Shown: positions 15,438 to 63,978 of the stretch, piece by piece
Layout: every line of letters begins with the position of its first letter
How positions within the stretch are numbered: position 1 is the first letter of the stretch
Origin: a virus
DNA length: 64,000 nt
IMG/VR virus record: IMGVR_UViG_3300027861_002706
Coordinates: 53,602 to 117,601 of that record
Direction: 5' to 3' (one strand)
Program-made: the position numbers and the translations under genes
Notes under the pieces: model-generated
The model's input: the letters and a program-made list of their open reading frames with translations, nothing else
Told to the model about the DNA's origin: nothing
Database searches by the model: none

Positions 15438-18400
15438 TTAGAATACCGAGTCCATTCTATCTCTGAGGTCTGTGGCGATTTCGCTTCGAGCCATTGTACC
15501 ATTTAACTCAGATCTAAATGAACCCTGAATCTTTGGAACGTACCCATTATGAAGCGCATATTGGTTCGTCATGCCTCTAAAATCTGCTGGCGCATTCATC
15601 TTACCCGATACATTGAGTCTGCTTCTTTTCCCTTCGGATCTAGTGATACGAGCTATTCTGGTATTAGGCATTGCATTCGGATTAAATGTCGGGTCATTTG
15701 GAGTTGACATCACTGGAACTGGAGGTAATGTTCCCGAAGAGTTATACATAGATACCGGTACATTGCCGGGTGAGAATCTATCTAACGTAGATCGGACCGC
15801 CTCTATCCCTGCGAGGCCTCCTATTACCGCAGCAGCAGGCTTAAAGAACTTTGTTCTACTTATATTCTGGAAGAATTCGCCGCTCAACATACCAGACCTA
15901 GACGCGTTCGAGCTGACGCTTGCTCCACCTACCCTAGCATTGTCTGGGCCGTAGTCGGCTATATTCACATTATTCTGCCGCATCCTAGTCATTGTTTCAT
16001 GAAACTCAGCAGATAGAACTTCGTTGAGGCCTGCGCCACTTGTATCCATCGCTGCTAATCCTTGGAAGTCGGCCATAGTCAATGAAGCAATACCAGACGC
16101 GCCAAAGACATTATCGTTAACTAGTCCGCCTATTACTGAACTAAGGTTTCTGACTACACCCTCGAATGGCATTCCTAGTCCGGTTCCCCTGGTCCCTACT
16201 TGTAACTCTTGGGCCATCACTTCTATAAACATCATTCGTTTTGCAAGATTGTGTGCAAGTTGTCTCATCTGTTCGTCATTACCGGAGCCACTCAGCTTTT
16301 GTAATATACTTAATGTTTGTGGCTCCATTTCATGGAGCTTTCGGAACAAACCATCTGTCCCGGGTTCTATGATCTCTGCTGCCCTTAACAAGTTATTAGA
16401 TACTTGATCGATAAGATCCCCAGCTTTAGTCCCACTCCTGCCTTCTATCAGGTCATACATGAACCCCATGCTGCCGTGGTCCATATCAGATCTGGCCTGA
16501 GAGGAACCCGCCTTCAATGCGTTAAGGATAAGCTCTGCTGGTTCCTGCCCAGAAACACCGTGTGCAGCCTTTTTGAGGAACATATACTTTATCAAGTTCC
16601 GCGCATCTGTATAATGATATGTTGAAGCAGTACGAGTAGGCCCACCTGCCCCGGCCACGCTCTCTGTAAAGATGCCGCTAGCCTTACCTAAAAATTTACC
16701 CAGGCGATCTATTCCCGCATCGTCTAACCTGGCTTCAAGGTTAGTCCTTAACAGACTTTGACCCTCACCGCTAGCCTGCAAGTCTATTAACTGTGTAACC
16801 ATATAGTCGACATAAGATCTAGCTCTGAAGTGCCCCTCGACAATAGGAGTAGAATGCCCATGGCCAGCTATTTTTATCAATGACTCGAAGGTATGCTGTC
16901 TTACAGTTGCCTCTGACGTCATATCTGCGGTCTGAGATATAAGCTTATTGACATCTCCATAATTAAAACTAGTCTGCCCAGCTAGGCCTAAGCTCCTCGC
17001 CATTTCATTATCTGGACTACCTTTAAGATTACTAAGTATGCCATCCATCATTTCTATTTGTCCTTGATGGATACCCCTCATAGTGGAATCGTCCATACTA
17101 GCTAGTCTAAATAGATTGATAGCATCTTTGTCAAGGTCGCCTTCAGCTGCAAACTCAATCAGCATATTATTAAGATATGCTGTATGCTTGAACTCAAAAT
17201 CATCGACTATATCTGCAGAAGCGAAAGCTGTATCCTTCAGCAATACAGTCTGAAGCGCAAACATTTGGCGTCCGCCTGCAGCAGGTTCTCTTACTCCAGT
17301 AGTATAGTGCTTCCCAGCCCATGCCTTTTCGACTAGCTTGTCTAGTGCACCATCATCCATTCCTGGCGTAAAGTGCATGGACCTGAATGCTTTTTCGGTC
17401 ATACCAACCTGGAATTTGCCAAGACTGCTATGAGTCTGTAGCCGCATTCTTGCGCCAGATTGTATCCCTGCAGCACCTATCTCTGATGAATAGAATAAGC
17501 CTTGTTTGGCCATTGTATTAGCGGCCATTACTTGATAAAGCTTATCTAGTTTTTTTCCTATATCGGATGTTTCAGCAAGCCGGTTATCTGCTGAGCTATC
17601 CCTGAGTGTCTCCACGCTTTCTAATATATCCAGATACATTGATTGAGCTTCTACCTTGGCGCTTTGTCCAGAGCCTAGCTTGGCAGCCGCATCATCGGCT
17701 AGCTTCTCAAATTGCCTCCCTCCTTGTGAGACTCTTACAAAGCCTTGCTCTTCAATGAATTGCATAGTTTTTGCGGAGGGGACAAGCATTGGCCCATGTT
17801 CACCTTGGATCAAGAATGCTTGATCTGAGATTTTGGCCACACCACCCTCACTGGAAACTAGTCCGAGCAGGCTTTTGCCAATATCTTCAAGGTTCACTTT
17901 ACCAGAGGCACCACGTTTTCTCAGTTGATTGATACCATACTCGGATTCAATACCTCCAGCTGCAAGTTTTGGCCTAAATCGCTTAGGCCCTATCTCTCCA
18001 CTCCCGTAAGCCTCCCCCTCTCCTTTAAATTTAAGCCGAGATACATCTCCAGTTTTGAGATCTCCATCAGCGCCTATCTTTCTCAGAGCCTCAAATCCGA
18101 AGCTCGTCTCTTTGAAGTGCCTCATCTGCTGATAGATAAGACTCATCTCATGATCTTTGGCGAATATTGCTGGATTCGCTTCGCTCAGAGCGTTAAAGAT
18201 TAGTCCCTTTTTCTCACTAATCTGCTTCTGATGGAATCGCTGATTAGAATAAGGCTGGTTAGTGTCGGGATTTATATATTTTCCATCACGTTTTTTGAGA
18301 AGCTCGCCAGTTTTGGGATCTCTATCTGGATGCATTCTTTGCCCGTGAGCAAAGTCAACAGACTCTGCAAGCATCATTAGATCTCTTTGTTTTATACTGA

Positions 18401-21095
18401 GTGCATTCCTGCCGAAAGAACCCATAGGTTCTTCCGCTCTTGTTCCTACCTCCGCTGCGAGAGATGCCATCATATATTGCTTACCTACATCGAGATTTTT
18501 AGTACCGATAACCCCCATTCTTGCGAGTGTCTGATTAAGCGAGCCTGCTTGTTCCCTTAATGCAGCCTCGGCTTGTTCTTGCGTATGAGCTGGTAACTGT
18601 TTTAATATCTCGTGGACATCAACTTCATGGAATGTCTTTTCTATTAGTTCCTTGAATAGAAGAGAATCTTTTCCTCCGGCGGCCTCATGTAGGTGCTTCA
18701 TGAACTGCTCGTTGGTTACACGTTCTAACTTGCTCCCCAGGCCGTGGATCTGTGTAGTTATCCCACTACCTATTATCTCTTGGTTAGAAGTTCCGCCCAT
18801 TACGTTTACTAATCGCTGAGTAGCAACTTCGCTCCCAGTCTCTGTGATAATATGTGCAAGGTTCCTGAGCAGTGTTTCGTTAAAGCCGAAGTCAAATCCC
18901 TCTGCAACTCCCTTCATTGCGTCTGAACTCCACCGGCCAGAACCGGTTTTCGTCCTATCCATATCCTTAATTCCCTTAACGGAAATTCCTAGATCTCCCA
19001 TTACAAAATGTTGTCCCCCAGATGAATCTATTCCTGTGAGCTGTCCTACGATAGCTTGCACTGCGGTAGGTCCAACAACCTGAGATGTACTAACCCTCTG
19101 GCTACCTACCATATGTCCTGCACTAACACTAGTACGTGCGGGTGCCCTTGTAGTCCTATGCGGCCCTTCCGCCATGATTAGTTCCAGCTGCCCAGTTCCA
19201 GGAATTAATCTATATCCGGTGACATATGTATGATCCGGATCCATTCCTCGCTGCTTAACAATATTCATCATATCGTTAGCATGCCTGAGGTCTTTCACCA
19301 TCACATCTTCAGATCGAGCCACCCCTTGTCCAATTACTGCTTTATCTATACCAGCAGGTTGTACGTCGAACCCTACCGCGGAAATAGATCTTCTAACTTT
19401 ACGGTCTGCTGTAACCTGCAAGTCATATTCAAGAGCTTTTAGCTGGATCGGACTACCAAAATTTACCTTTTGATCGCCTGCGACTTTGCTGGTCATCGAC
19501 TGTTGATGCTGTCCAATTGCATCGACTAAATCATTACGCAGGAATCCTAAAAATTCTTGAGTCCCATCCTCTAAAATCTGGAGCTCTTTGAGATTGATTT
19601 TATGGGATACGGTACGTCTAGACATACCAGTCATAGGATCAAGATCTAGCTGCTTCACTAGCTCGCTAGACATCACTACACCAGAGTCGCCAAAAATTGC
19701 TTTGTTTAATACGGGGTCTGCAAACTGTAGTCCTAACGCCCTTATTCCAAAAGCTACGTCGTCAGAGATGCTCGCACCCCCACGTGCACTTCTGATTTCG
19801 TGCTTTAATAATTCGTTAGTCTCACTACTGAAACCCATTATCTCTGCTACAGCTGTAGGCAATTCTTTAATATCTCTTAGGACAATCGGGGCCCTGGACA
19901 GATGAAATTGCCTGCCTTTTTCGAACGTTTCCTGTCCGGGTAATACAGTAAGGTTTTTAACATCCTCAATAGTTCCTTTGATATATACTCTCTGCTTACC
20001 CCTACTACCATCTGCGAGGTTGGGCCTGAATGCAGATTCTGCGCTTTGTGGAGTCCATGCAAAATTGAAATTCTTGAGTCTTTCACTAAGAGGATCAATA
20101 CCTAGCGCAGATGATCCTTCGGGGACTCCACGTTTAGTAATCCTCTCTATATGATCTGTTACGGCTTGTTGCGCAGTATTCAGCTCTCTGCGCATTTCTC
20201 CCGAATTAAATCTTTCTGCATGGGTATGAGGATCATATCCAGTAATCAGTATCTGCCTTAGTCTGTCTTCCTCTAGCATGAGTTTGAACAGGTCGGAATC
20301 CTGACTCACTTCTAGCATTATTTGGTTTCTGGCCCCGAGAAGATGCCTACCTAGCTTAGGCTGGCCAGAGTACGACATGGGGTCAATCATTCCTGCGCTA
20401 TTTTTAGTACGCATCTCGAACGGGAGTCTATTGTCGAATAAGTCCTCTGTAGCCCCAATCACTTGATTTATAGTCTTATTTAATTTGCTAAAATCAGACT
20501 GATCCTTCATTACTGTATTGATTTCTCGATATACTGTTTCAGAAAAACTTGTAGGTTTTGTCAGACGATCGTTTCCTCCGATAGTTCCAACACCAGCAGG
20601 AACGCTATATGTACTACCTCCTTTGAACATATACTCATTCGCGCTCTGGCTAACTCTCCCAGGAAAATCCGGATTCATATCATCTGCGAATAGAGGTATG
20701 TGCACAGCCTTTTTACCTTGGCCATGAGGAGTAAACACAAGTGAGCCACCCCTGTGAACTAGCGTGCCTTCATTGCTACCTGCTATACCTGTTATTAACT
20801 GGCTAAGTCCCTCGCTCTGGGAGCCAGTCTTATATACATCTGGTAAATTATCTATACTACTAATTGTTTTCCCAGGTAGACTCAACTTGACCTTGGAGAA
20901 CAGATCTTCTTGAGTGGTGCCTGTCGAGGCTCCTATGGCCAGTGCTGCTGCTAGGTTTGCTTTAGCGGTGTGGCTAATTCCACCACGCAGAGGAGGGGTT
21001 TCACCGAAATGAATATCGACTACATCTCTTTGAAATACCTTTATTGCATCTTGTCCCTCACTTGAGGCGGATCCAGGTGTGGGGGTGCTGGCCAT
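15438..21095 (-). CDS. Giant virion protein at the tape-measure locus; candidate virion RNA polymerase (DPBB, D-x-D-x-D motif), 1885 aa
   Basis: GVREP (about 17284-17298) is followed by GDLDKD (17124-17141), resembling the beta-prime NRAP...NADFDGD arrangement. The C-terminal AAVIGGLAGIEAV segment is hydrophobic. The CDS is certain; the RNAP call is an inference. Confidence 0.55.
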   Translation of the reverse strand: MASTPTPGSASSEGQDAIKVFQRDVVDIHFGETPPLRGGISHTAKANLAAALAIGASTGTTQEDLFSKVKLSLPGKTISSIDNLPDVYKTGSQSEGLSQLITGIAGSNEGTLVHRGGSLVFTPHGQGKKAVHIPLFADDMNPDFPGRVSQSANEYMFKGGSTYSVPAGVGTIGGNDRLTKPTSFSETVYREINTVMKDQSDFSKLNKTINQVIGATEDLFDNRLPFEMRTKNSAGMIDPMSYSGQPKLGRHLLGARNQIMLEVSQDSDLFKLMLEEDRLRQILITGYDPHTHAERFNSGEMRRELNTAQQAVTDHIERITKRGVPEGSSALGIDPLSERLKNFNFAWTPQSAESAFRPNLADGSRGKQRVYIKGTIEDVKNLTVLPGQETFEKGRQFHLSRAPIVLRDIKELPTAVAEIMGFSSETNELLKHEIRSARGGASISDDVAFGIRALGLQFADPVLNKAIFGDSGVVMSSELVKQLDLDPMTGMSRRTVSHKINLKELQILEDGTQEFLGFLRNDLVDAIGQHQQSMTSKVAGDQKVNFGSPIQLKALEYDLQVTADRKVRRSISAVGFDVQPAGIDKAVIGQGVARSEDVMVKDLRHANDMMNIVKQRGMDPDHTYVTGYRLIPGTGQLELIMAEGPHRTTRAPARTSVSAGHMVGSQRVSTSQVVGPTAVQAIVGQLTGIDSSGGQHFVMGDLGISVKGIKDMDRTKTGSGRWSSDAMKGVAEGFDFGFNETLLRNLAHIITETGSEVATQRLVNVMGGTSNQEIIGSGITTQIHGLGSKLERVTNEQFMKHLHEAAGGKDSLLFKELIEKTFHEVDVHEILKQLPAHTQEQAEAALREQAGSLNQTLARMGVIGTKNLDVGKQYMMASLAAEVGTRAEEPMGSFGRNALSIKQRDLMMLAESVDFAHGQRMHPDRDPKTGELLKKRDGKYINPDTNQPYSNQRFHQKQISEKKGLIFNALSEANPAIFAKDHEMSLIYQQMRHFKETSFGFEALRKIGADGDLKTGDVSRLKFKGEGEAYGSGEIGPKRFRPKLAAGGIESEYGINQLRKRGASGKVNLEDIGKSLLGLVSSEGGVAKISDQAFLIQGEHGPMLVPSAKTMQFIEEQGFVRVSQGGRQFEKLADDAAAKLGSGQSAKVEAQSMYLDILESVETLRDSSADNRLAETSDIGKKLDKLYQVMAANTMAKQGLFYSSEIGAAGIQSGARMRLQTHSSLGKFQVGMTEKAFRSMHFTPGMDDGALDKLVEKAWAGKHYTTGVREPAAGGRQMFALQTVLLKDTAFASADIVDDFEFKHTAYLNNMLIEFAAEGDLDKDAINLFRLASMDDSTMRGIHQGQIEMMDGILSNLKGSPDNEMARSLGLAGQTSFNYGDVNKLISQTADMTSEATVRQHTFESLIKIAGHGHSTPIVEGHFRARSYVDYMVTQLIDLQASGEGQSLLRTNLEARLDDAGIDRLGKFLGKASGIFTESVAGAGGPTRTASTYHYTDARNLIKYMFLKKAAHGVSGQEPAELILNALKAGSSQARSDMDHGSMGFMYDLIEGRSGTKAGDLIDQVSNNLLRAAEIIEPGTDGLFRKLHEMEPQTLSILQKLSGSGNDEQMRQLAHNLAKRMMFIEVMAQELQVGTRGTGLGMPFEGVVRNLSSVIGGLVNDNVFGASGIASLTMADFQGLAAMDTSGAGLNEVLSAEFHETMTRMRQNNVNIADYGPDNARVGGASVSSNASRSGMLSGEFFQNISRTKFFKPAAAVIGGLAGIEAVRSTLDRFSPGNVPVSMYNSSGTLPPVPVMSTPNDPTFNPNAMPNTRIARITRSEGKRSRLNVSGKMNAPADFRGMTNQYALHNGYVPKIQGSFRSELNGTMARSEIATDLRDRMDSVF
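19778..19822. repeat. 45-bp direct repeat, copy 1 (inside the 1885-aa gene)
   Basis: ccccacgtgcacttctgatttcgtgctttaataattcgttagtct is identical to 27738-27782; flanking bases differ. Confidence 0.95.
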
Positions 21096-21096
21096 C

Positions 21097-24000
21097 TTAG
21101 CTCCTTAGTATTTCTGATGCTATTCTAAAGTAATCGTCAAGTTCTTTTCTCGAAGTCATATCATAGTTGACTATATTTTCTAGCCCGGATCCGAGATCCT
21201 CGTTTATGTCGTAATCAGTTATACCTGATTGCATTAACTCTGCTTCCAACTGCTGTCTAGCTGCAGCATCTAGTCCAGATCTGGTATAAAAGTGATAGAT
21301 ATCTAGATCTGGTTCTGGGAATTCTGTTCTTAACCTATTTGCAGTTCTTGCAAACACCCCCGACCTGTGAGCATCATTAGAGACTGACCCCCAAACAGAA
21401 TCCATTGTTCTGATTCGAACAGCATTCATTGGAACATCTGGATGGAACCCAGCCCAATCTGCTCCTGGCATTCCATGTGCCATCATGCTTTGTGCAGCTC
21501 TGGCATCGGGGTGTCTTCTTATATTGCTATAGTCAAATGAAGTATCTCCTTGCTTTGCCCAGGCTGCCTGATATACCGGTTTTAAGTACTCAGGAACATA
21601 CTGCAATACTTCTTTACGTTTAGACGTAGTGAAGTCGAGGGACCTCATGAACAGCTGCTTTTCCCTTGTTGGCAAAGCGATTAGGGAGTCTCGCACAAAC
21701 TGCTTAGCCCCTAAAGAATAGTCCAGTGATGCTACTGTCCGTTTTTTAAGATCTATAAAGTGCGCTGCTACTTTATGTAGTCCTTCTACCTTCGCCTTTT
21801 TCTCTAGACGCCGTAGCTTTATGTATTCTAGTGAATCAAAATATTCATCCATTCTTCTTCTATCGGTGACATACTCGGGGACGTAGCCTCCAGCTAGCTG
21901 ACCAGTATTCATCGCCCGTATAGACGAACTACCCCCAAAGTGAATCGCTCCGGCAGTGGACATCACTATACGAGAGATGGGATTCGCACCCATGAGAACT
22001 CCGGTAGTGAACCCACCGATAGTTGCAGTAAACGGATCTGTTGCTTTGAGCTGCTCTGCCATTGGTCTTAGCATAGTAGTATATGGCTTAGTCCAATCAT
22101 ACTCATCTGTATCGTATACTTCTCTTTTAATATATGCGTCAAGCTCGTCTCTAACTGGCAGCATCTTGTTCGACAACATTGGACCGAGTATAGGTATTGT
22201 TATACCCAATCTAGCTACTATGTCATGCGAGAACACTTCCCATGCAGCACCAACTGCTTGCTCCGGAATAGTGTAATAGGCGTCTATGCCCTCTTGGTTT
22301 TCTTCATTGGTTTTTTGCTCGACTAGTCCGGAGAATTGTTCTCCTATCGAAGTAAATTTTCTAGAATATGTAGCGTACCTGTTTAACTTCTGCTTAACGC
22401 CTTCTTTTGTTTTTACTAACTTATCTGTCCAATATTCATCTACTGTTCCAGACTTAAGCATAGAGTCTACAAGTATACTGTAATGCTTATAGGATTCAGA
22501 ATGGGGAGCAACATCCGCTAACACCATGAATCTATCTACAGCGTCATATATCCCAGGAGATCCACTATGCAGTCTAAAGGCAATTTCTTTAGCTGTGCCA
22601 GGCAACCTTAGTTCGCCATGGGGTATCTTTGAGTATGGGTCACCCGTACTGAAATCTATGTGGTAGTTTGTGTCTCCCGGGAAAACCCCCATTGCTGTAT
22701 TCCCAGTAAAGCTGGATCTGGATCCAGGTAACCAGGATGGCATCGTATTAGGAATAGTATTTGTAGCTTGTCGCTGTGCTTGAAGATAATCAGACATGAC
22801 AAATCTACGAAGAAGCTCAGTGTGCCCCATCAGGCCACCAACGCTTTCATCATAGAAAGCTCTAGTCGTAGAATTCATAAACCCAGCATCTGCTAGCTGA
22901 GGCGCAGATGGATTAGTGGACTTAAATGGCATGTCCCATAGTCCGAATTTATAGATACCAGAAAGCTCACTCATATGAGCGATGCTAGTAGACAAAGTCG
23001 CGCTCTTTTTAGCAGGAGATAATTCCGCCCTTGCGGGATACGGATCCATTCCCATCTCTACTACTGACTCACCTGGAGTTTGGTATGCTCTTAACCCAGT
23101 TGCGTTACCTCCCGGTACGCCCATGCTTCCTATGGTCCTATTCGATAATTTTTCTATAGAAAACGCAGTAGGGTAGGGTCTATCAAATCTATGTTTCTCT
23201 GCTAGATATTCATCTCCGGTAGGATCGAACATAGCTCCGACTAGAGGCATGTGCTCTAGAAGAGATCCAACGGCAGGAATATCAGTCAGTGGGTTTAATA
23301 TATTTCCCGCAAGCTCTGGTACTCTAAACAGATTGCTTGGGGTCGGTAGAAAACTTACGCTTCTAAAATATTCTGCCTGGGAGCCATATAGTGTATCGGT
23401 ATACTTGTACTCAGATCGCATCCTGGCAAACATGCCAGGAGCAAAATAACTTATTTTTCCACCACTAAAAGGTTGCTTACCAAGCATCCAATATCTACCG
23501 GACCTCATAGGAACCGGTTGCTCACCAGATAATATATCTCTAGTTTCCTTAGGGGTTTCTGTTATGCCTGGGAACGGAAGTTCTCCGATAGCTGCAGATA
23601 TTCCTCCGGCTATGAGTAGGCCACTTTTGTTTGGTAGCATTTTTAGCGCGATTGCAAACGGTGCTATTGTCCGTATAAAATCTGAGGCTGAACTTTCCAC
23701 AGATCCTGGCATCAAGTCTTCCATATATCTCGCTGCAGGAGATACACCAGTAAACTCTCTCAAGAACTGTGCAGAGATTTTAGCTACACTATAGGCATCT
23801 AACAGTAAGTTAGAGGCCTTGTACCCACCAGTAGGAATACCAGATAAATAATCTGCATATTTTACCCCCTCTAGAGCTAAAGCTCCTCCCGCTGCCATAC
23901 CAAATATTTTTGCCGTGTTTCCTACAAAGCCAAACATTCCTGGAGTAGCTCTGAAGCCAAGACCTGTAGTCGCTCCAATCAAGTCATTGAGCCTAGTAGT

Positions 24001-25719
24001 CATAAAGTTAGCTACATCTGCTAGCCTACTAGAGATGTCGGACTTGAATGCGAATGAATCTAGGGGGCGAGTTTGTCTTCTCTCGAATCCACCAACTGGT
24101 CCGGCAGATACATTCTCGATGGCAGTAGCAGGGCGTACGCCGTAATCAGATTGGCTAACACCCTTTACTGGCTTGACTACTTTCTTGAGTATTCCACTTC
24201 TTTGTTCTCTCTGCACATACTCAATAGAAGTTTCATCTCCTAATGCAGCAAGTACATCTCGCTTAGTCTCCTCGAAGTATCCACGATCCCTGGGGTCTGG
24301 CCTAGATTGCCTCTGTACTCTCTGCCTAGATTGATCAATTAAGTCTAACTTAGATCCATCAACCTCAGAAGTTCCAGTCCTTCTTGCTACTTCTTTCGCC
24401 GTCTCATCTATTCGAGTAGTTTCTTTTACTACAGGTGTTCCCTTAGTCCTCCTTTTAACAAGATCGGTTGTAGCTCTTTTAAGGAAAGACTCTTGTGTCG
24501 CATACTTCCTTCCTATTCCTATGTCGTCTAATAGCGCATTAAACCATTTTAGTACAGGATTCCTAGATGTAGATTCTATTTCCTCAGAGGACATTCGAGT
24601 CTGGCTTTTAAGTTGCCCCCTGCTGGCAAGTACTGCTTCACCTATCTTGTTCTTTCCGCTTGCTCTATATCCGGAATCAACAAATTCAAGCTTAGCAGCA
24701 GTACTACCGTCTCCTCTGGGGGCTATTTTGAATAAGTCTTCACCTATTACGAGCCTGTGTGCAGCAGGATCAGATACCTCAGGCGCACGAACTATTGCGG
24801 AAGCTTCACCTTTACCGAAGAGGTGCCTAATGGGCCCAGCAAAAATATCACTAACACGCAGATTCGCAAACGGTAACTGAATTTCATCTGTCAGTCTTTT
24901 TAGTATACCACCGACATGTTGGCCACTTAATATTCTTGTGTCTATGACCTTTTTTGTAGCTGTATCTAAGAATATTCTTTCATCTATTCTTTGATCACCC
25001 GCAAGCAATCCCCATCTTTTCGCATCCACTAAGCCATCTATCTGATCTTTACCAAACAGATCAACAATTTGTTTATGCTGGATACTGTCTGTAGACATAG
25101 CGATAAGTTTATCGACGGTAAGATCTTCTACGCCTTCAGCTGAATTAAACTGTCGGGTATACCTTTCTCTAATCGACTCACGCATTCTAGTGACAATATC
25201 TTGGGCGTCCTGAGATATTGATCTTGTTCCTTCAACACCGCTAAAGAACGTGCCATGAATGTCTGCCTGATGCAATGTATCAAGATTTCTCTTCGTATCT
25301 TCTAGTATTTGAAGATGTGATATTAGAGGTGTACCTTCGGCTGTCATCCTGAGATTGGCAGCCGCTGCTTCATCAATCTTACCGGACAATCCTCCGGCGG
25401 TAGCAGCAATATTTAGATAAGTTTTAGATGCCGCCCGCTGGCCCCTATTAAGCATACTGGTGAGCTTACCAGCCACCTCCATACCTAGGTTGCCTAACGG
25501 TCTTTTAGATATTAAATTTACTGCTGCACCAATTAATGCTATCTTTGATATATTGCTAGAAAGCGCATAGTTCTCTCTTAGTATACGCTCTTCGTTAAAG
25601 GCGGGCTCGTCATCTCTAGATGATGCAATTCTATCTCTAAGCCGCTCAGGATCTTGGATAAGATCCCTATGGAAACTATAATCTCTAGGTAGGTTGGACT
25701 TATTTCTTTCTGATGGCAT
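21097..25719 (-). CDS. Tape-measure-like protein (1540 aa)
   Basis: Follows two tail chaperone genes. Mostly helical with several Gly/Ala hydrophobic segments (IFGMAAGGALALEGV, GLLIAGGISAAIG). Contains PMRSGRYWMLGKQPFSGGKISYF and DFSTGDPYSKIPHGELRLPG motifs. Confidence 0.7.
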   Translation of the reverse strand: MPSERNKSNLPRDYSFHRDLIQDPERLRDRIASSRDDEPAFNEERILRENYALSSNISKIALIGAAVNLISKRPLGNLGMEVAGKLTSMLNRGQRAASKTYLNIAATAGGLSGKIDEAAAANLRMTAEGTPLISHLQILEDTKRNLDTLHQADIHGTFFSGVEGTRSISQDAQDIVTRMRESIRERYTRQFNSAEGVEDLTVDKLIAMSTDSIQHKQIVDLFGKDQIDGLVDAKRWGLLAGDQRIDERIFLDTATKKVIDTRILSGQHVGGILKRLTDEIQLPFANLRVSDIFAGPIRHLFGKGEASAIVRAPEVSDPAAHRLVIGEDLFKIAPRGDGSTAAKLEFVDSGYRASGKNKIGEAVLASRGQLKSQTRMSSEEIESTSRNPVLKWFNALLDDIGIGRKYATQESFLKRATTDLVKRRTKGTPVVKETTRIDETAKEVARRTGTSEVDGSKLDLIDQSRQRVQRQSRPDPRDRGYFEETKRDVLAALGDETSIEYVQREQRSGILKKVVKPVKGVSQSDYGVRPATAIENVSAGPVGGFERRQTRPLDSFAFKSDISSRLADVANFMTTRLNDLIGATTGLGFRATPGMFGFVGNTAKIFGMAAGGALALEGVKYADYLSGIPTGGYKASNLLLDAYSVAKISAQFLREFTGVSPAARYMEDLMPGSVESSASDFIRTIAPFAIALKMLPNKSGLLIAGGISAAIGELPFPGITETPKETRDILSGEQPVPMRSGRYWMLGKQPFSGGKISYFAPGMFARMRSEYKYTDTLYGSQAEYFRSVSFLPTPSNLFRVPELAGNILNPLTDIPAVGSLLEHMPLVGAMFDPTGDEYLAEKHRFDRPYPTAFSIEKLSNRTIGSMGVPGGNATGLRAYQTPGESVVEMGMDPYPARAELSPAKKSATLSTSIAHMSELSGIYKFGLWDMPFKSTNPSAPQLADAGFMNSTTRAFYDESVGGLMGHTELLRRFVMSDYLQAQRQATNTIPNTMPSWLPGSRSSFTGNTAMGVFPGDTNYHIDFSTGDPYSKIPHGELRLPGTAKEIAFRLHSGSPGIYDAVDRFMVLADVAPHSESYKHYSILVDSMLKSGTVDEYWTDKLVKTKEGVKQKLNRYATYSRKFTSIGEQFSGLVEQKTNEENQEGIDAYYTIPEQAVGAAWEVFSHDIVARLGITIPILGPMLSNKMLPVRDELDAYIKREVYDTDEYDWTKPYTTMLRPMAEQLKATDPFTATIGGFTTGVLMGANPISRIVMSTAGAIHFGGSSSIRAMNTGQLAGGYVPEYVTDRRRMDEYFDSLEYIKLRRLEKKAKVEGLHKVAAHFIDLKKRTVASLDYSLGAKQFVRDSLIALPTREKQLFMRSLDFTTSKRKEVLQYVPEYLKPVYQAAWAKQGDTSFDYSNIRRHPDARAAQSMMAHGMPGADWAGFHPDVPMNAVRIRTMDSVWGSVSNDAHRSGVFARTANRLRTEFPEPDLDIYHFYTRSGLDAAARQQLEAELMQSGITDYDINEDLGSGLENIVNYDMTSRKELDDYFRIASEILRS

Positions 25720-25722
25720 TGT

Positions 25723-26397
25723 CTACTCCGTAGATTGTGCTGAATTCCAACCTTCAGGGGATTGCGGTACTCGGTAGGAATCCGGCATCATTTTGCCCGG
25801 TAACCCCCTATGCATCTGCTTTTTCTGTTTTCTTACTTCTTTAGCAACTTGTTTTTGAGCATACTCTTCATCTAGAAACATTCTTAAATCTATCGGCTGT
25901 TCTAATGAAGTTTCTGCAATCGCAAAAAGCTTAGTCAATTCGGCTAATGTCATGTCCTCTAGCTCACATGGTTTAATCGCATGAAAATGCCGGGTTATGA
26001 CAGTCATCATCACTGAATCTAACGAGTTAATTGCTACTCTAGCCTCATTGAAATAGTCCGCTATCCCCTCATTGGAGCTAAATCCAGATATATCTATTAT
26101 ACATTTACTTAGCATCTCAAAACACATACATGGTAAATCGTATAGCGGATTCTTATCTATATTAATCCAGTTAAATTCTGGCCAGATTATACAAGATTGC
26201 AGTATCTGCTCTGTAGGATCACATCCTAAATCGATGTCTTGCTGCAGAAATAAAAACTCCTGGCGAGTCATAGGTCTAATCAATATATTAGACACCTTAG
26301 ACTCGCCAGGCTGACCAGAGAGATCAATTAGGAAGATTTCTTTGCAGGCTCTCCTTAGCCTAGGTATCTCTTCTTTAAGTCGTGGATCGAGAAACAC
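25723..26397 (-). CDS. Tail assembly chaperone-like protein (224 aa)
   Basis: Directly upstream of the tape-measure-like gene. ILIRPMTRQEF resembles FIIRSLNRREY in the neighbouring gene. Confidence 0.6.
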   Translation of the reverse strand: MFLDPRLKEEIPRLRRACKEIFLIDLSGQPGESKVSNILIRPMTRQEFLFLQQDIDLGCDPTEQILQSCIIWPEFNWINIDKNPLYDLPCMCFEMLSKCIIDISGFSSNEGIADYFNEARVAINSLDSVMMTVITRHFHAIKPCELEDMTLAELTKLFAIAETSLEQPIDLRMFLDEEYAQKQVAKEVRKQKKQMHRGLPGKMMPDSYRVPQSPEGWNSAQSTE

Positions 26398-26400
26398 ATC

Positions 26401-26880
26401 CTAAACCTTAATTGGAGTAGGTGCACTTTGGTATCCTGAAATCGCAAGAATGGAATCATGAAGCGTAGTAGCTACACCTGAGGCCTTGCTCCTTAATTCA
26501 TCTAGTCCTAGCGGAGGATGAACAGTGCCCTGGGCAGCAATAGCTTCTTCACTCATCATGTTGAGTGTAGCTCTAACTCCTTCAGGATTCGCAGAATCTG
26601 CAGAAGCTTCAACTTCTTTAGCCATGGCCTCTGCCTGTGTTTGGACCAAGTTACGGTACTCTCGGCGGTTTAAGCTTCTAATGATGAACCATTCATCAGC
26701 ACAATTAACAACATTGACATTGCTGAATTGTTTTTTGGCGGCTTGGATGATCGAGATAAACTCTTCATCCCATTCAAGCTCCTTAGCTTGCTGCCACGTA
26801 ATCTCTAACCCTGGAATTTTGTCTTCCATATTTTTGAGCTTGGGTTCAGCCTTACTCTTTTTCTCTACTACAGTTTCCAA
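26401..26880 (-). CDS. Tail assembly chaperone (159 aa)
   Basis: FIIRSLNRREY...SGVATTLHDSILAISGY pattern, AAGGAG Shine-Dalgarno before a TTG start, and position after the tube genes. Confidence 0.65.
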   Translation of the reverse strand: METVVEKKSKAEPKLKNMEDKIPGLEITWQQAKELEWDEEFISIIQAAKKQFSNVNVVNCADEWFIIRSLNRREYRNLVQTQAEAMAKEVEASADSANPEGVRATLNMMSEEAIAAQGTVHPPLGLDELRSKASGVATTLHDSILAISGYQSAPTPIKV

Positions 26881-26894
26881 TGTCTCTCCTTAAT

Positions 26895-27695
26895 CTAACC
26901 ACCTGAGACACTATTGCTCAGTGTGTTATTTGCTTGATGGCCATCAGCCATTCTACGTGCTGGAGCATTCCTTTCAACTATTTCTTTTGCGAAAAAGCTA
27001 TAAATCTCATAAATAGGAGATCCAGAAGAAGATACATCTCCACCACCAGTGGCTGAAGCAGATATTACTTGAGATTGACCAACTATATACGCATCTTTTA
27101 TAATAGTTTCTATATGATCTTCAGACGTTATACTACCATATGCTACGAGTATATCAAATGTACGTTTTTGTTTATATGCTTCGTTAGTTGATCTTCTAAG
27201 GTATTCAACAGCCGCCATTGCTTCGGGGGTTCTAGATAAAGCTCCGGAACTGAAGTTACCAAGCATACTGCGTAGAGAATTTAATCGCGATCTAGAACTG
27301 CCTGGTCTGTTATCTGCATCAAAACCCTTTAGTATGTCATCCCCATAATCTTTGGCAGCTATTTGAGCTAGCCATTTTACTCTTTCAGTAGAATCTTTAG
27401 AAAAGAATTCTTCCGCATCATTAACTGCTTGTCTATGCTCCTTAAGATCTGTTTGGCCTTGTTTAGTGAACTCTGCTATTGCAGTGGCTAGATATCCTGG
27501 ATGTCTATAATTTATGACTAACCTCCCCGTAATTATCTTTCTGCCATTACTAACTGCAGAGAAGGTATCATCAGCCCATCCATATAGTGGAGTCTTGGAA
27601 TCCCTTGCATCCCAGTCAACTCTAAATGCATCGGATAGCCTATACCCTCCGATATAGATACCGACGTTACATGGAGTGTAGTATCTATCTGGCAT
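26895..27695 (-). CDS. Tail tube-fold protein, paralogue 3 (266 aa)
   Basis: DSKTPLYGWADDTFSAVSNGRKIITGRLVIN aligns by eye with REKAPLYTMGSANPRSFSRGKRGIAGSLIF of the main tube protein. Confidence 0.7.
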   Translation of the reverse strand: MPDRYYTPCNVGIYIGGYRLSDAFRVDWDARDSKTPLYGWADDTFSAVSNGRKIITGRLVINYRHPGYLATAIAEFTKQGQTDLKEHRQAVNDAEEFFSKDSTERVKWLAQIAAKDYGDDILKGFDADNRPGSSRSRLNSLRSMLGNFSSGALSRTPEAMAAVEYLRRSTNEAYKQKRTFDILVAYGSITSEDHIETIIKDAYIVGQSQVISASATGGGDVSSSGSPIYEIYSFFAKEIVERNAPARRMADGHQANNTLSNSVSGG

Positions 27696-27737
27696 TTAAT
27701 AGAATCCTTTAAGCATAATTGTTCCCGCCGTATCTAG

Positions 27738-27782
27738 CCCCACGTGCACTTCTGATTTCGTGCTTTAATAATTCGTTAGTCT
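27738..27782. repeat. 45-bp direct repeat, copy 2 (spans the stop codon of the 262-aa gene and the following intergenic gap)
   Basis: Identical to 19778-19822, same orientation, 7,960 bp apart. Confidence 0.95.
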
Positions 27783-28553
27783 TCCCTGAAATCTAAGATT
27801 CGTCTCTAGCCAGGCTGGATCATACCCCTTCTCAAACAACGATGCAATATCGGTGTCATTCTCCTGACCATAAAATTTCATTATCTCTTTTCTTAATCTG
27901 TCTTTATCGCTTTCCCAGCCTGCGGCAGATAATGGGAAATACTGCTCAGCTACATATGTGTAAGTAGACTCTGTATATATATCGTCTATAGAGAAAGTGG
28001 TGCCGAAATTAGTCAGTGTAATATTATGTAAAATCGCACTTGATGTACCTCCAAGTTCATTGGAGGCCTGAAACACCATACTAAATTTAGGTATCTGATC
28101 AACAAATATAGTAGGCTCTCTTATCGGTTCTCCATCCGAATAAGACTTAGAAAGCATGTTAACAAATGCATCTCTGAGGCCTGCCGTAAATACCATTGAT
28201 CCAGCTATAGTCCTAGACCCACGAGCATAAGCAACAGGATTTGTTTCTCCTAATCTCCTGACCGGCATAACGCTTCTAGCAGATGAGACTGTGACAGTCT
28301 GTAGCTTATTCTCAATTTCTGAAAATCCTGGATCATCCGTAGTTTCATTATGAAGAGCTGGAATAGTTATTAAGCATAGAATATCAGACCCAGCATAAGA
28401 CAGAACATCTCTTTGGACAACTGGAGCTGTCCCCATCAAATCTACATTTGATGCAGCCTGAGCTAAGCGCTTTACACGCTTAGCTTCATCTACTTGAATC
28501 TTCTCATGTTGAGAAATTGCATATGCACGCATGTTACTTAAAATATCAGTCAT
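27765..28553 (-). CDS. Tail tube-fold protein, paralogue 2 (262 aa)
   Basis: SYAGSDI...RSVMPVRRLGETNPVAYARGSRTIAGSMVF...DQIPKFSM matches the pattern of the adjacent tube gene. Confidence 0.75.
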   Translation of the reverse strand: MTDILSNMRAYAISQHEKIQVDEAKRVKRLAQAASNVDLMGTAPVVQRDVLSYAGSDILCLITIPALHNETTDDPGFSEIENKLQTVTVSSARSVMPVRRLGETNPVAYARGSRTIAGSMVFTAGLRDAFVNMLSKSYSDGEPIREPTIFVDQIPKFSMVFQASNELGGTSSAILHNITLTNFGTTFSIDDIYTESTYTYVAEQYFPLSAAGWESDKDRLRKEIMKFYGQENDTDIASLFEKGYDPAWLETNLRFQGRLTNY

Positions 28554-28565
28554 GGCTAAGAATTA

Positions 28566-28594
28566 GGGAGAGGTCGGATTAACCAACCTCTCCC
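28566..28594 (-). terminator. Stem-loop after the tail tube gene (putative terminator or processing site)
   Basis: Minus strand reads gggagaggttgg-ttaat-ccgacctctccc (12-bp stem with one G:U); U-tract is weak. Confidence 0.65.
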
Positions 28595-28617
28595 CCACCT
28601 CTCAATTCTAAAGCTAG

Positions 28618-29289
28618 TTAACCAGTAGGATTATCTTTATTTGCAATCGGTACATTGAACCGAAGATTGGCCTGGGCGTTCCAAGGTTCGACTTCCGTAG
28701 CAACGAAGGTACAGCTTTCGTCTGTAGTAATATCGTCGATAGACATACCACTACCAGCGTTCATTATCTCAACATTTTTAATCTGCATCCTGCATACATG
28801 TCCATATTCGTTAGCAGCAGATATGGTAATGTTGAACGGCGGTAATTGGTCATGATATGTCGCGCCAACAGATTCTAATCCTAGGAATTCCCTGAGGGCA
28901 ACTACATCATTAGGATTATTTCCTGTTGTTGATCCGAGCACCGGGTCTGTTATGTTAGCTGTACCAACCCGAGATTGAGAACCCATTTGGGATTTAGTCA
29001 GCTCAGTCTTCTTCATTATGACTCTAGACTCACCAGTTATATCTTGCCGAGAAACATCGAGCAAAGCCGACCTATCAAAGACCAAGAAGATTAGCGATCC
29101 TGCGATACCTCGCTTGCCCCTAGAGAAGGAGCGCGGGTTTGCGGATCCCATTGTGTAAAGCGGCGCTTTCTCCCTTGTAACCGTGTAAGAGACTCCTTGA
29201 ACCTCTCCTACGGTCACATTTCCGAATGTGACAATCATGTCAACACCGCTAAATGAATTGTATGTTTGTGTTACTGCTGATCCTGGCAT
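28618..29289 (-). CDS. Major tail tube protein
   Basis: TYNSFSGVDMIVTFG...EVQGVSYTVTREKAPLYTMGSANPRSFSRGKRGIAGSLIF; directly after the sheath gene. Confidence 0.85.
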   Translation of the reverse strand: MPGSAVTQTYNSFSGVDMIVTFGNVTVGEVQGVSYTVTREKAPLYTMGSANPRSFSRGKRGIAGSLIFLVFDRSALLDVSRQDITGESRVIMKKTELTKSQMGSQSRVGTANITDPVLGSTTGNNPNDVVALREFLGLESVGATYHDQLPPFNITISAANEYGHVCRMQIKNVEIMNAGSGMSIDDITTDESCTFVATEVEPWNAQANLRFNVPIANKDNPTG

Positions 29290-30845
29290 TAGCCTATCCC
29301 CTCTCCCTTAGCTAGAGATATCGTAGTATTAATCGTAACCAACTCGAATGCAGGTACCATGCTCAAGTCAATCGTCACTTCTCCTAGAACCTGCTGATCT
29401 GGAGTAGATGATATTGCAAAGTCATAAGACTTTATTGCACCCTTCTTTAGTGCTCTCTGAAGATTTGTATCTATCGCACTTTCCAGTGCCGCGAGGAACG
29501 GTCCGCTAATCGGTTTGCCGATAAACGCCTCACCGGCATCTCTTATTATTTCACCCATTGCTTGAGTGGTTCTTATCGTAGTCACTCTAGTATAATCGGA
29601 TCTCGAGTTGATTCCAGCATTAAATGCTCCAGTTATCCCAGAAGTAATTACATAGCCAGCTGCTTTTTGAAGTAGTGCTACTATTCTATGTTGAAGCAGA
29701 GACCTAGCCTGAACTCCGCTGAGAGTTCTAGCTTGCCCAAGACCAGCAAGAGGCCTATTCGTTACACCGATATGGGGCTGAACTACAGTAAGCATTGCAG
29801 CGTACGAAGCAGCACCATTGCTGTTAACATAAGAAACAGTACCAGCGCCTTTTGCTACAGCAAACTTCTTCGCCTCAGTACCAAATGCTCTTGCTGTACC
29901 TCCGACTACACTAACATATGCACCAGCGTCTATTTTGTTTCCATCACCATCAGTAGCAGCAGTACCATCGGTATCATTCGGCTGCATTAAGCCTATGTAG
30001 TCTGTACTAGGCGCAGATGCATCAGTGGAGTTTAGAACTGATCCCTTAAGATACTTCACCCAACTAGATCCAGTGAATGATTCACCAGTATAGCTGGCAT
30101 TAGAAGCTCCTCCGTATACTGAAGTATCGCCGGCATCCTGTGTAAGATATTTTACATATTCATTAACAAGAGTAAGACTAGGCGTCATGAACCAGGCACC
30201 TGTAGTTGAAGTGAAGTCTGAGACAGCGGTAGCGCCGGCGTCTTTCCACGTGAGCTGTTTGGCCACATGTCCTATTGGAGTAACACCGATAACGCCGAAT
30301 GCGCTATTGCTCTCTTTTGTCAACTGATAGCAAAACTCTCCAAGTTGAGCAACAAAACTATTACCAACAAGACTATCGGTAGCTGCAGCATCAGTTGTAC
30401 CAGAGAAAGCTCCATCGGCATATGCTCCAGCGACATATACTATATCTACTTCATGATGCTGTAGCTTAGAATAGGTAGATGCTAGCTTGGTATACAGCCC
30501 AGACATGTGGTCACCTACATCTGTACCGGAGTAGGGTGTAATGACACCAGTGTCGGTTACTACTACTTCGATATTAGTAGTGCCGGCAGCTATTGCCTCT
30601 TCTATCGCAAGAGTGATTTCAGATGGCGAACCATCGGTTTGATTCCTCAAATTGCGCATAGCCACGCCAACATTATCTATCAGCAACGGCTCGTTCATCG
30701 GGATTATTCCCGGAGTTGCACCTTCGAAACCACCAATAATAGTTAACTTGGGTCCAGGATTAGGCGGAGCAATCCTGAGTCCAAAATCATTGATAGTAAC
30801 ATTGACAGTTGGTAGACTGTCAGTATTCGTAATTCCACTTACCAT
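29289..30845 (-). CDS. Contractile tail sheath protein
   Basis: C-terminal sheath domain (GAIKSYDFAISSTPDQQVLGEVTIDLSMVPAFELVTI), GGAGGT Shine-Dalgarno, and position before the tube gene. Confidence 0.9.
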   Translation of the reverse strand: MVSGITNTDSLPTVNVTINDFGLRIAPPNPGPKLTIIGGFEGATPGIIPMNEPLLIDNVGVAMRNLRNQTDGSPSEITLAIEEAIAAGTTNIEVVVTDTGVITPYSGTDVGDHMSGLYTKLASTYSKLQHHEVDIVYVAGAYADGAFSGTTDAAATDSLVGNSFVAQLGEFCYQLTKESNSAFGVIGVTPIGHVAKQLTWKDAGATAVSDFTSTTGAWFMTPSLTLVNEYVKYLTQDAGDTSVYGGASNASYTGESFTGSSWVKYLKGSVLNSTDASAPSTDYIGLMQPNDTDGTAATDGDGNKIDAGAYVSVVGGTARAFGTEAKKFAVAKGAGTVSYVNSNGAASYAAMLTVVQPHIGVTNRPLAGLGQARTLSGVQARSLLQHRIVALLQKAAGYVITSGITGAFNAGINSRSDYTRVTTIRTTQAMGEIIRDAGEAFIGKPISGPFLAALESAIDTNLQRALKKGAIKSYDFAISSTPDQQVLGEVTIDLSMVPAFELVTINTTISLAKGEGIG

Positions 30846-63933: not shown

Positions 63934-63978
63934 CCATGTGTATACACATGGGTTTAGGTCCGGGTACACATTGTGTAC
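63934..63978. promoter_or_regulatory. Two palindromes sharing a TACACA/TGTGTA half-site (putative operators)
   Basis: ccatgtgtatacacatgg (63934-63951) and gtacacattgtgtac (63964-63978). Confidence 0.45.

Follow-up and report, generated by a model that had tools for sequence, protein, structure and literature searches.

The question raised by this locus is why 45 nucleotides from the interior of a very long open reading frame recur, base for base, at the 3' end of a tube-like gene elsewhere in the same viral genome, and whether the second copy is a working element or the trace of a past event. The window, that is, the whole 64,000-nt stretch of DNA that was analysed, comprises bases 53602-117601 of a linear virus record of 117,601 nt that is rated 91% complete. 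The two sites concerned are the following.

19778..19822, minus strand: copy 1, the donor, 45 nt within the 1885-aa open reading frame at residues ~425-440 (sequence comparison).
27738..27782, minus strand: copy 2, a derived 15-codon insert, in frame with the tube paralog (absent here in the related contigs L008, L009 and L015).

The first-pass annotation had described these sites as a 45-nt direct repeat with abrupt edges, and a base comparison of both bears this out: positions 27738-27782 and 19778-19822 are identical at 45 of 45 nt, stand in direct orientation 7,960 nt apart, and are bordered by mismatches directly beyond both edges of the identity. By chance, about 1e-17 such matches would be expected in the genome [(1.2e5)^2/2 x 4^-45]. 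A self-comparison of the whole genome for other gene-derived copies, which the same annotation had proposed, was run as a listing of all exact repeats of 18 nt or more over the 117,601 nt; the 45-mer proved to be the sole dispersed exact repeat of at least 25 nt, and the remaining repeats of that length are all local tandem repeats within three repeat-rich genes. In the whole virus record the 45-mer occurs twice, also when up to three mismatches are permitted. It has no match in any other IMG/VR record, and its 32-nt core has 0 matches in 185,579 prokaryote genomes, which argues that it is not a known spacer; a blastn search of window 26800-28700 against INPHARED phage records also gave no match. 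Separately, an exact 18-nt palindrome is located at window positions 63934-63951 (genome 117535-117552), ~50 nt from the end of the linear record.

All genes of this stretch lie on the minus strand and are transcribed in the order sheath, 223-aa tube, 262-aa tube paralog, 69-nt gap and 266-aa gene, followed by two small genes and then the 1540-aa, 1885-aa and 2502-aa genes. The features that matter for the argument, in order of transcription, are these.

29289-30845, minus strand: tail sheath gene (PHROG tail sheath).
28618-29289, minus strand: 223-aa tube gene (PHROG 9206 and 34314 common to it and its 262-aa neighbour).
27765..28553, minus strand: 262-aa tail-tube paralog (PHROG, AlphaFold2, Foldseek).
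27696..27764, minus strand: 69-nt intergenic gap, created or lengthened by the in-frame TAA of the insert (frame reading with and without the insert).
26895..27695, minus strand: next gene, 266 aa, with its ATG at 27695 (conservation in all relatives resumes at this ATG).
15438..21095, minus strand: 1885-aa open reading frame that holds the donor copy, without family assignment (ORF list).

At the recipient site, copy 2 begins on a codon boundary of the tube paralog and forms a block of exactly 15 codons, of which the first 18 nt are read as RLTNY-TAA and the other 27 nt are now non-coding. The earlier claim that the copy is read as RLTNY-stop, supplying the stop codon of the 262-aa gene, agrees with the translation of ORF 27765-28553, and the claim that it fills much of an intergenic gap can be put at 27 of the 69 nt. 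With the 45 nt removed in silico, reading continues through 13 further codons to a TAA directly adjoining the ATG of the 266-aa gene.

The protein that carries this new end had been called tube-like, a label confirmed at the level of a predicted structure. An AlphaFold2 model of the 262-aa product, built on a 54-sequence alignment, has a mean pLDDT of 74.8 and places the tube fold at about residues 57-208, and a Foldseek search with this model gave 57 matches with E <=0.001 (best E 3e-6, probability 1.00). The matches listed include chains of the tail-tube type, from phages, from contractile injection systems and from related particles, as well as chains of phage neck and baseplate assemblies. 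The model thus confirms a predicted tube-type beta-sandwich fold like that of solved tube proteins. The C-terminal tail at residues 210-262 is modelled as low-confidence helices (pLDDT blocks 39-59), with pLDDT <50 for the five insert-encoded residues. As an aside on annotation, PHROG 9206, which is labelled 'major head protein', matches both the 223-aa and the 262-aa tube-fold proteins (E 4e-49 and 4e-19, respectively); given the Foldseek tube matches, this label looks wrong for these two members.

The direction of copying is clear from the donor side. The distant orthologues of the 1885-aa protein in L006 and L007 (43% identity) can be aligned gap-free across the copy-1 segment, in which several positions are conserved. 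L008 and L009 are metagenome contigs, collinear with the window for 11-12 kb and 98-99% identical to it at the nucleotide level. Both carry the 45-mer once, at 45/45 and at the copy-1 position, with none at the copy-2 position. Because orthologues align through the segment and these two strains carry copy 1 exactly and lack copy 2, copy 1 is the original donor, and copy 2 was made from it. Across strains, copy 1 is no more conserved than its flanks, both being 98-99% identical, and therefore nothing marks it as a special DNA element.

As to what the donor gene encodes, the 1885-aa protein has no Pfam, PHROG or PDB-sequence match, and in the ESM Atlas it matches only unnamed phage clusters, so that the 'RNAP-like' label given to it in the first-pass annotation found no support in these sequence libraries. 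Relatives of the frame are present in the related virus records G001 and G003, as open frames of 2092 and 2114 codons, and an IMG/VR peptide-pattern search with a 333-aa piece of the protein returned no locus. The gene comes after the 1540-aa putative tape-measure gene. Taken from their first start codons, it and the 2502-aa ORF share 65 nt (15438-15502), an unusually large overlap for an operon so tightly packed, and translation of the 2502-aa gene may in fact begin further downstream.

The comparison of relatives for presence of the insert, also proposed earlier, was run and gave three close relatives without copy 2: it is absent at the target site in L008, L009 and L015, in all of which the flanks are 98-99% identical to the window. 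The same comparison locates the insert within a short stretch that differs between strains.

27701..27829, minus strand: variable block that differs from strain to strain, covering the last part of the tube paralog and the spacer as far as the following start codon, with the insert inside it (L015 alignment).

L015, the closest relative, is 98% identical up to 27830 and again from 27700, and diverges only over this 129-nt block. L008 is 98-99% identical to the window except at 27698-27878, the sole block of non-homology in 12.6 kb, and the corresponding variable blocks are window 27698-27878, L008 3337-3440, L009 2227-2471 and L015 2219-2359. At the protein level, a single 90%-identity cluster contains four unrelated tail types, and a neighbouring cluster, whose cores are 94% identical to the query, adds further types that are mutually different at the extreme C-terminus; at least five tail types are present within about 90% protein identity. 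In homologues more broadly, the tails that follow a conserved YVAEQYFP motif range from ~24 to ~165 residues and have little in common, and the spacing between the stop codon and the following start varies between an 11-nt overlap and +86 nt. This stretch of tail and spacer tolerates almost any sequence. The presence of non-homologous tails between strains that are otherwise 98-99% identical could stem from recombination with distant relatives, from relaxed constraint or from diversifying selection.

An insert-free allele of the same tail type was not present among the 104 proteins compared. When the variable tails of 14 related loci were searched against the whole genome, only chance matches of 13-19 nt were found; tails without other self pieces leave recurrent capture of self DNA at this position unsupported. 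In L010 (~1290-1520), the tail of protein P0003 contains three tandem copies of a ~12-residue unit (RELWPVIGTPQ...), another sign that the tail accepts duplications. L015 itself has a tube paralog that is 8 nt short in its conserved core (~1790-1800) compared with all others and is frameshifted, with a called product, P0100, of 203 aa only; the allele may be broken, or the sequence may be in error.

The insert is observed well beyond the record in which it was noticed. The exact 262-aa product is present in the JGI/IMG, Logan and ENA collections, and two further alleles from other assemblies, P0095 (3 contigs) and P0101 (1 contig), have the same tail and differ from the query at 2-3 core residues, ending in RLMNY. 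The change from T to M is a single C-to-T transition, which would be synonymous in the copy-1 frame. This pattern shows that copy 2 is inherited and is starting to drift, its encoded end being present in several non-identical populations. With an insert-encoded end in non-identical alleles of other assemblies, assembly error is excluded as far as is possible without reads.

The surroundings of both sites were searched for traces of how copy 2 arose or of what it might do. When the 80-nt flanks of the two sites were aligned locally, to one another and to the insert, the scores did not exceed those of shuffled controls, and in these flanks no target-site duplication, terminal repeat or extended homology was found at copy 2. 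At its edges there is zero shared base on either side, a count made without a pre-insertion junction for comparison. No sigma-70-like promoter on either strand and no intrinsic terminator was found at the copy-2 site, the predicted RNA fold of the region is not above shuffles (z-score -0.21), and an Rfam scan of window 19000-29000 returned no family. Several kinds of element were considered and set aside on this and related evidence: a transposon or MITE-like element, given two copies only, no target-site duplication, and a copy 1 that is ordinary conserved coding sequence; a structured regulatory RNA or transcription signal, given that promoter, terminator, stable fold and Rfam match are all lacking; a CRISPR spacer array, given unrelated flanks and no array-like repeats in the 117.6-kb genome; and programmed readthrough or frameshifting at the new TAA, given no slippery motif by eye and the absence of the insert from sister strains.

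The reading that best accommodates these observations, and the one we consider probable, is that copy 2 arose once, by ectopic templated insertion or by capture of a fragment, in an unconstrained tail, and was kept as a neutral or nearly neutral scar; most likely it is a harmless scar of DNA repair or copying and not a working device. In an ancestor of the sub-lineage, a DNA break or stalled replication at the 3' end of the tube paralog would have been sealed with 45 nt whose source was the 1885-aa gene, in that genome or in a sister phage's: a polymerase may have copied the stretch and switched back, or a free fragment may have been ligated in. The donor was left intact, and the insert came to lie in the C-terminal tail outside the tube fold, the locus's least constrained portion, where RLTNY-stop would have replaced the last 13 codons and left a tail 8 residues shorter with a new end. 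Had the earlier frame extended to the TAA next to the following ATG, the stop would also have been uncoupled from that start. The insert would since have been inherited as a neutral or nearly neutral scar, and it would have survived because it fell in an unconstrained tail. We infer both the repair or replication mechanism and the neutrality; the lack of microhomology at the edges slightly favours ligation, although no pre-insertion allele was found for comparison.

Among the five options that the first-pass annotation had left side by side, a template-switch or repair scar is therefore the one favoured, and a spacer-like capture, an RNA guide or target, and an artefact are disfavoured. The remaining option, a recombination substrate, stands in part: recombination is physically possible for a 45-bp direct repeat, but it would be a side effect and not a function, since the product would have lost four tail genes, among them the 1540-aa putative tape-measure gene, and would carry a truncated 1885-aa gene. 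The repeat predicts rare 7,960-bp deletion genomes, in which those four tail genes and the 5' portion of the 1885-aa gene would be missing, and deletion by this route is a small load.

Some observations count against reading copy 2 as a scar. A slightly beneficial change would also account for a length that is a whole number of codons and for persistence in three or more alleles; deletion between 45-bp direct repeats that bracket essential genes should carry some cost, yet the repeat has been kept; and the junctions are not exactly definable without the pre-insertion allele, with no template-switch microhomology visible.

The alternative that survives best, although we consider it unlikely, is that the insertion was selected, such that the early stop trims the tail of the tube paralog and changes the ratio or the surface of the tail proteins. 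It is consistent with an in-frame insert, in whose absence the ORF would run on to a TAA directly before the next ATG, with the persistence of the insert in those alleles, and with a tail that is hypervariable among near-identical strains, as fits diversifying selection. But an open frame of 48 nt would arise by chance in close to half of all cases, the alleles already disagree at one of the five new residues (T versus M), and the tail lies outside the fold in a low-confidence part of the model. A more specific form, that stop-start coupling with the next tube-like gene was broken (if the prior frame ran to the abutting TAA) and that the altered ratio or surface served, for example, escape from a tube-sensing host defence, is similarly doubtful; the distance from stop to start already varies among relatives, which argues that coupling is not conserved.

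Somewhat less probable again is the idea that the tube-paralog 3' tail and spacer are a recurrent break site in this phage group, cut for example by a host or phage nuclease. If this were true, lesions here would be patched with any DNA at hand, the 100-180-nt blocks of non-homology would have been made locally, and the 45-mer would be a single patch whose source is still recognisable.

It is slightly more improbable still that copy 2 is a functional nucleic-acid element that regulates, or is co-regulated with, the 1885-aa mRNA. Only the perfect identity of the copies and the position in an intergenic gap speak for such an element. Against it, both copies have the same sense on what is probably one late transcript and so would have no mutual pairing; the site has no promoter on either strand, terminator, fold above shuffles or Rfam match; L008, L009 and L015 do without copy 2; and the identity of copy 1 across strains does not exceed that of its flanks.

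Enzyme-mediated capture, in which host Cas1-Cas2 would have integrated a spacer-like fragment off target or a tiny mobile element would have been at work, is a very improbable account. A short self-derived fragment with sharp edges is what it would leave, but there is no target duplication on either side, nor terminal inverted repeats or a short target-site duplication, no repeat array is found anywhere in the genome, and the 45-mer (as its 32-nt core) is absent from the prokaryote genomes searched. A length of 45 nt exceeds that of most CRISPR spacers. Least credible of all is an assembly or chimeric-read artefact: the record is a metagenome assembly, but four more contigs, from other assemblies, carry the same kind of C-terminal end in two alleles that are not identical, the exact protein is in three source collections, and an artefact would require two switches returning precisely to the same place.

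In comparison with known systems, copy 2 groups with templated insertions, with the filler DNA of repair junctions and with illegitimate recombination in phages. Template switching of the FoSTeS/MMBIR type and the filler DNA of end joining both yield templated insertions, and the points at which templates are switched usually show 1-5 nt of microhomology. Like these insertions, copy 2 matches sequence elsewhere in the genome with the donor unchanged, has no target-site duplication or mobile-element ends, and is polymorphic among close relatives; unlike FoSTeS/MMBIR products, it has no visible microhomology of 1-5 nt in a comparison made without the pre-insertion allele, and fragment ligation would account just as well for this lack. 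Phage mosaicism arises by illegitimate recombination, which acts with short or no homology at module joints, and the tube-paralog tail and spacer resemble a mosaic joint in that they are rewritten between strains with 98-99% identical flanks. Here, in contrast to mosaicism, the material comes from the phage's own genome 8 kb away and not from another phage, and it amounts to only 45 nt. Off-target Cas1-Cas2 integration, as in neo-CRISPR loci, is similar in that copy 2 is short, self-derived and sharp-edged, but it differs in the lack of a target duplicated on both sides and of any array or cas context. A literature search on templated insertions in phages returned only papers on genome editing and eukaryotic repair.

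The value of the case is that of a clean natural example, a dated and directional self-copy of 45 nt in a phage for which donor, target, carrier strains and non-carrier strains are all identified, and its importance beyond this is small. It also carries a warning for annotation, because the stop codon and the intergenic gap of the 262-aa gene are recent accidents. For the biology of these phages, it means that short templated or captured insertions feed variation at gene ends, and that the C-terminal tails of tube paralogs tolerate them.
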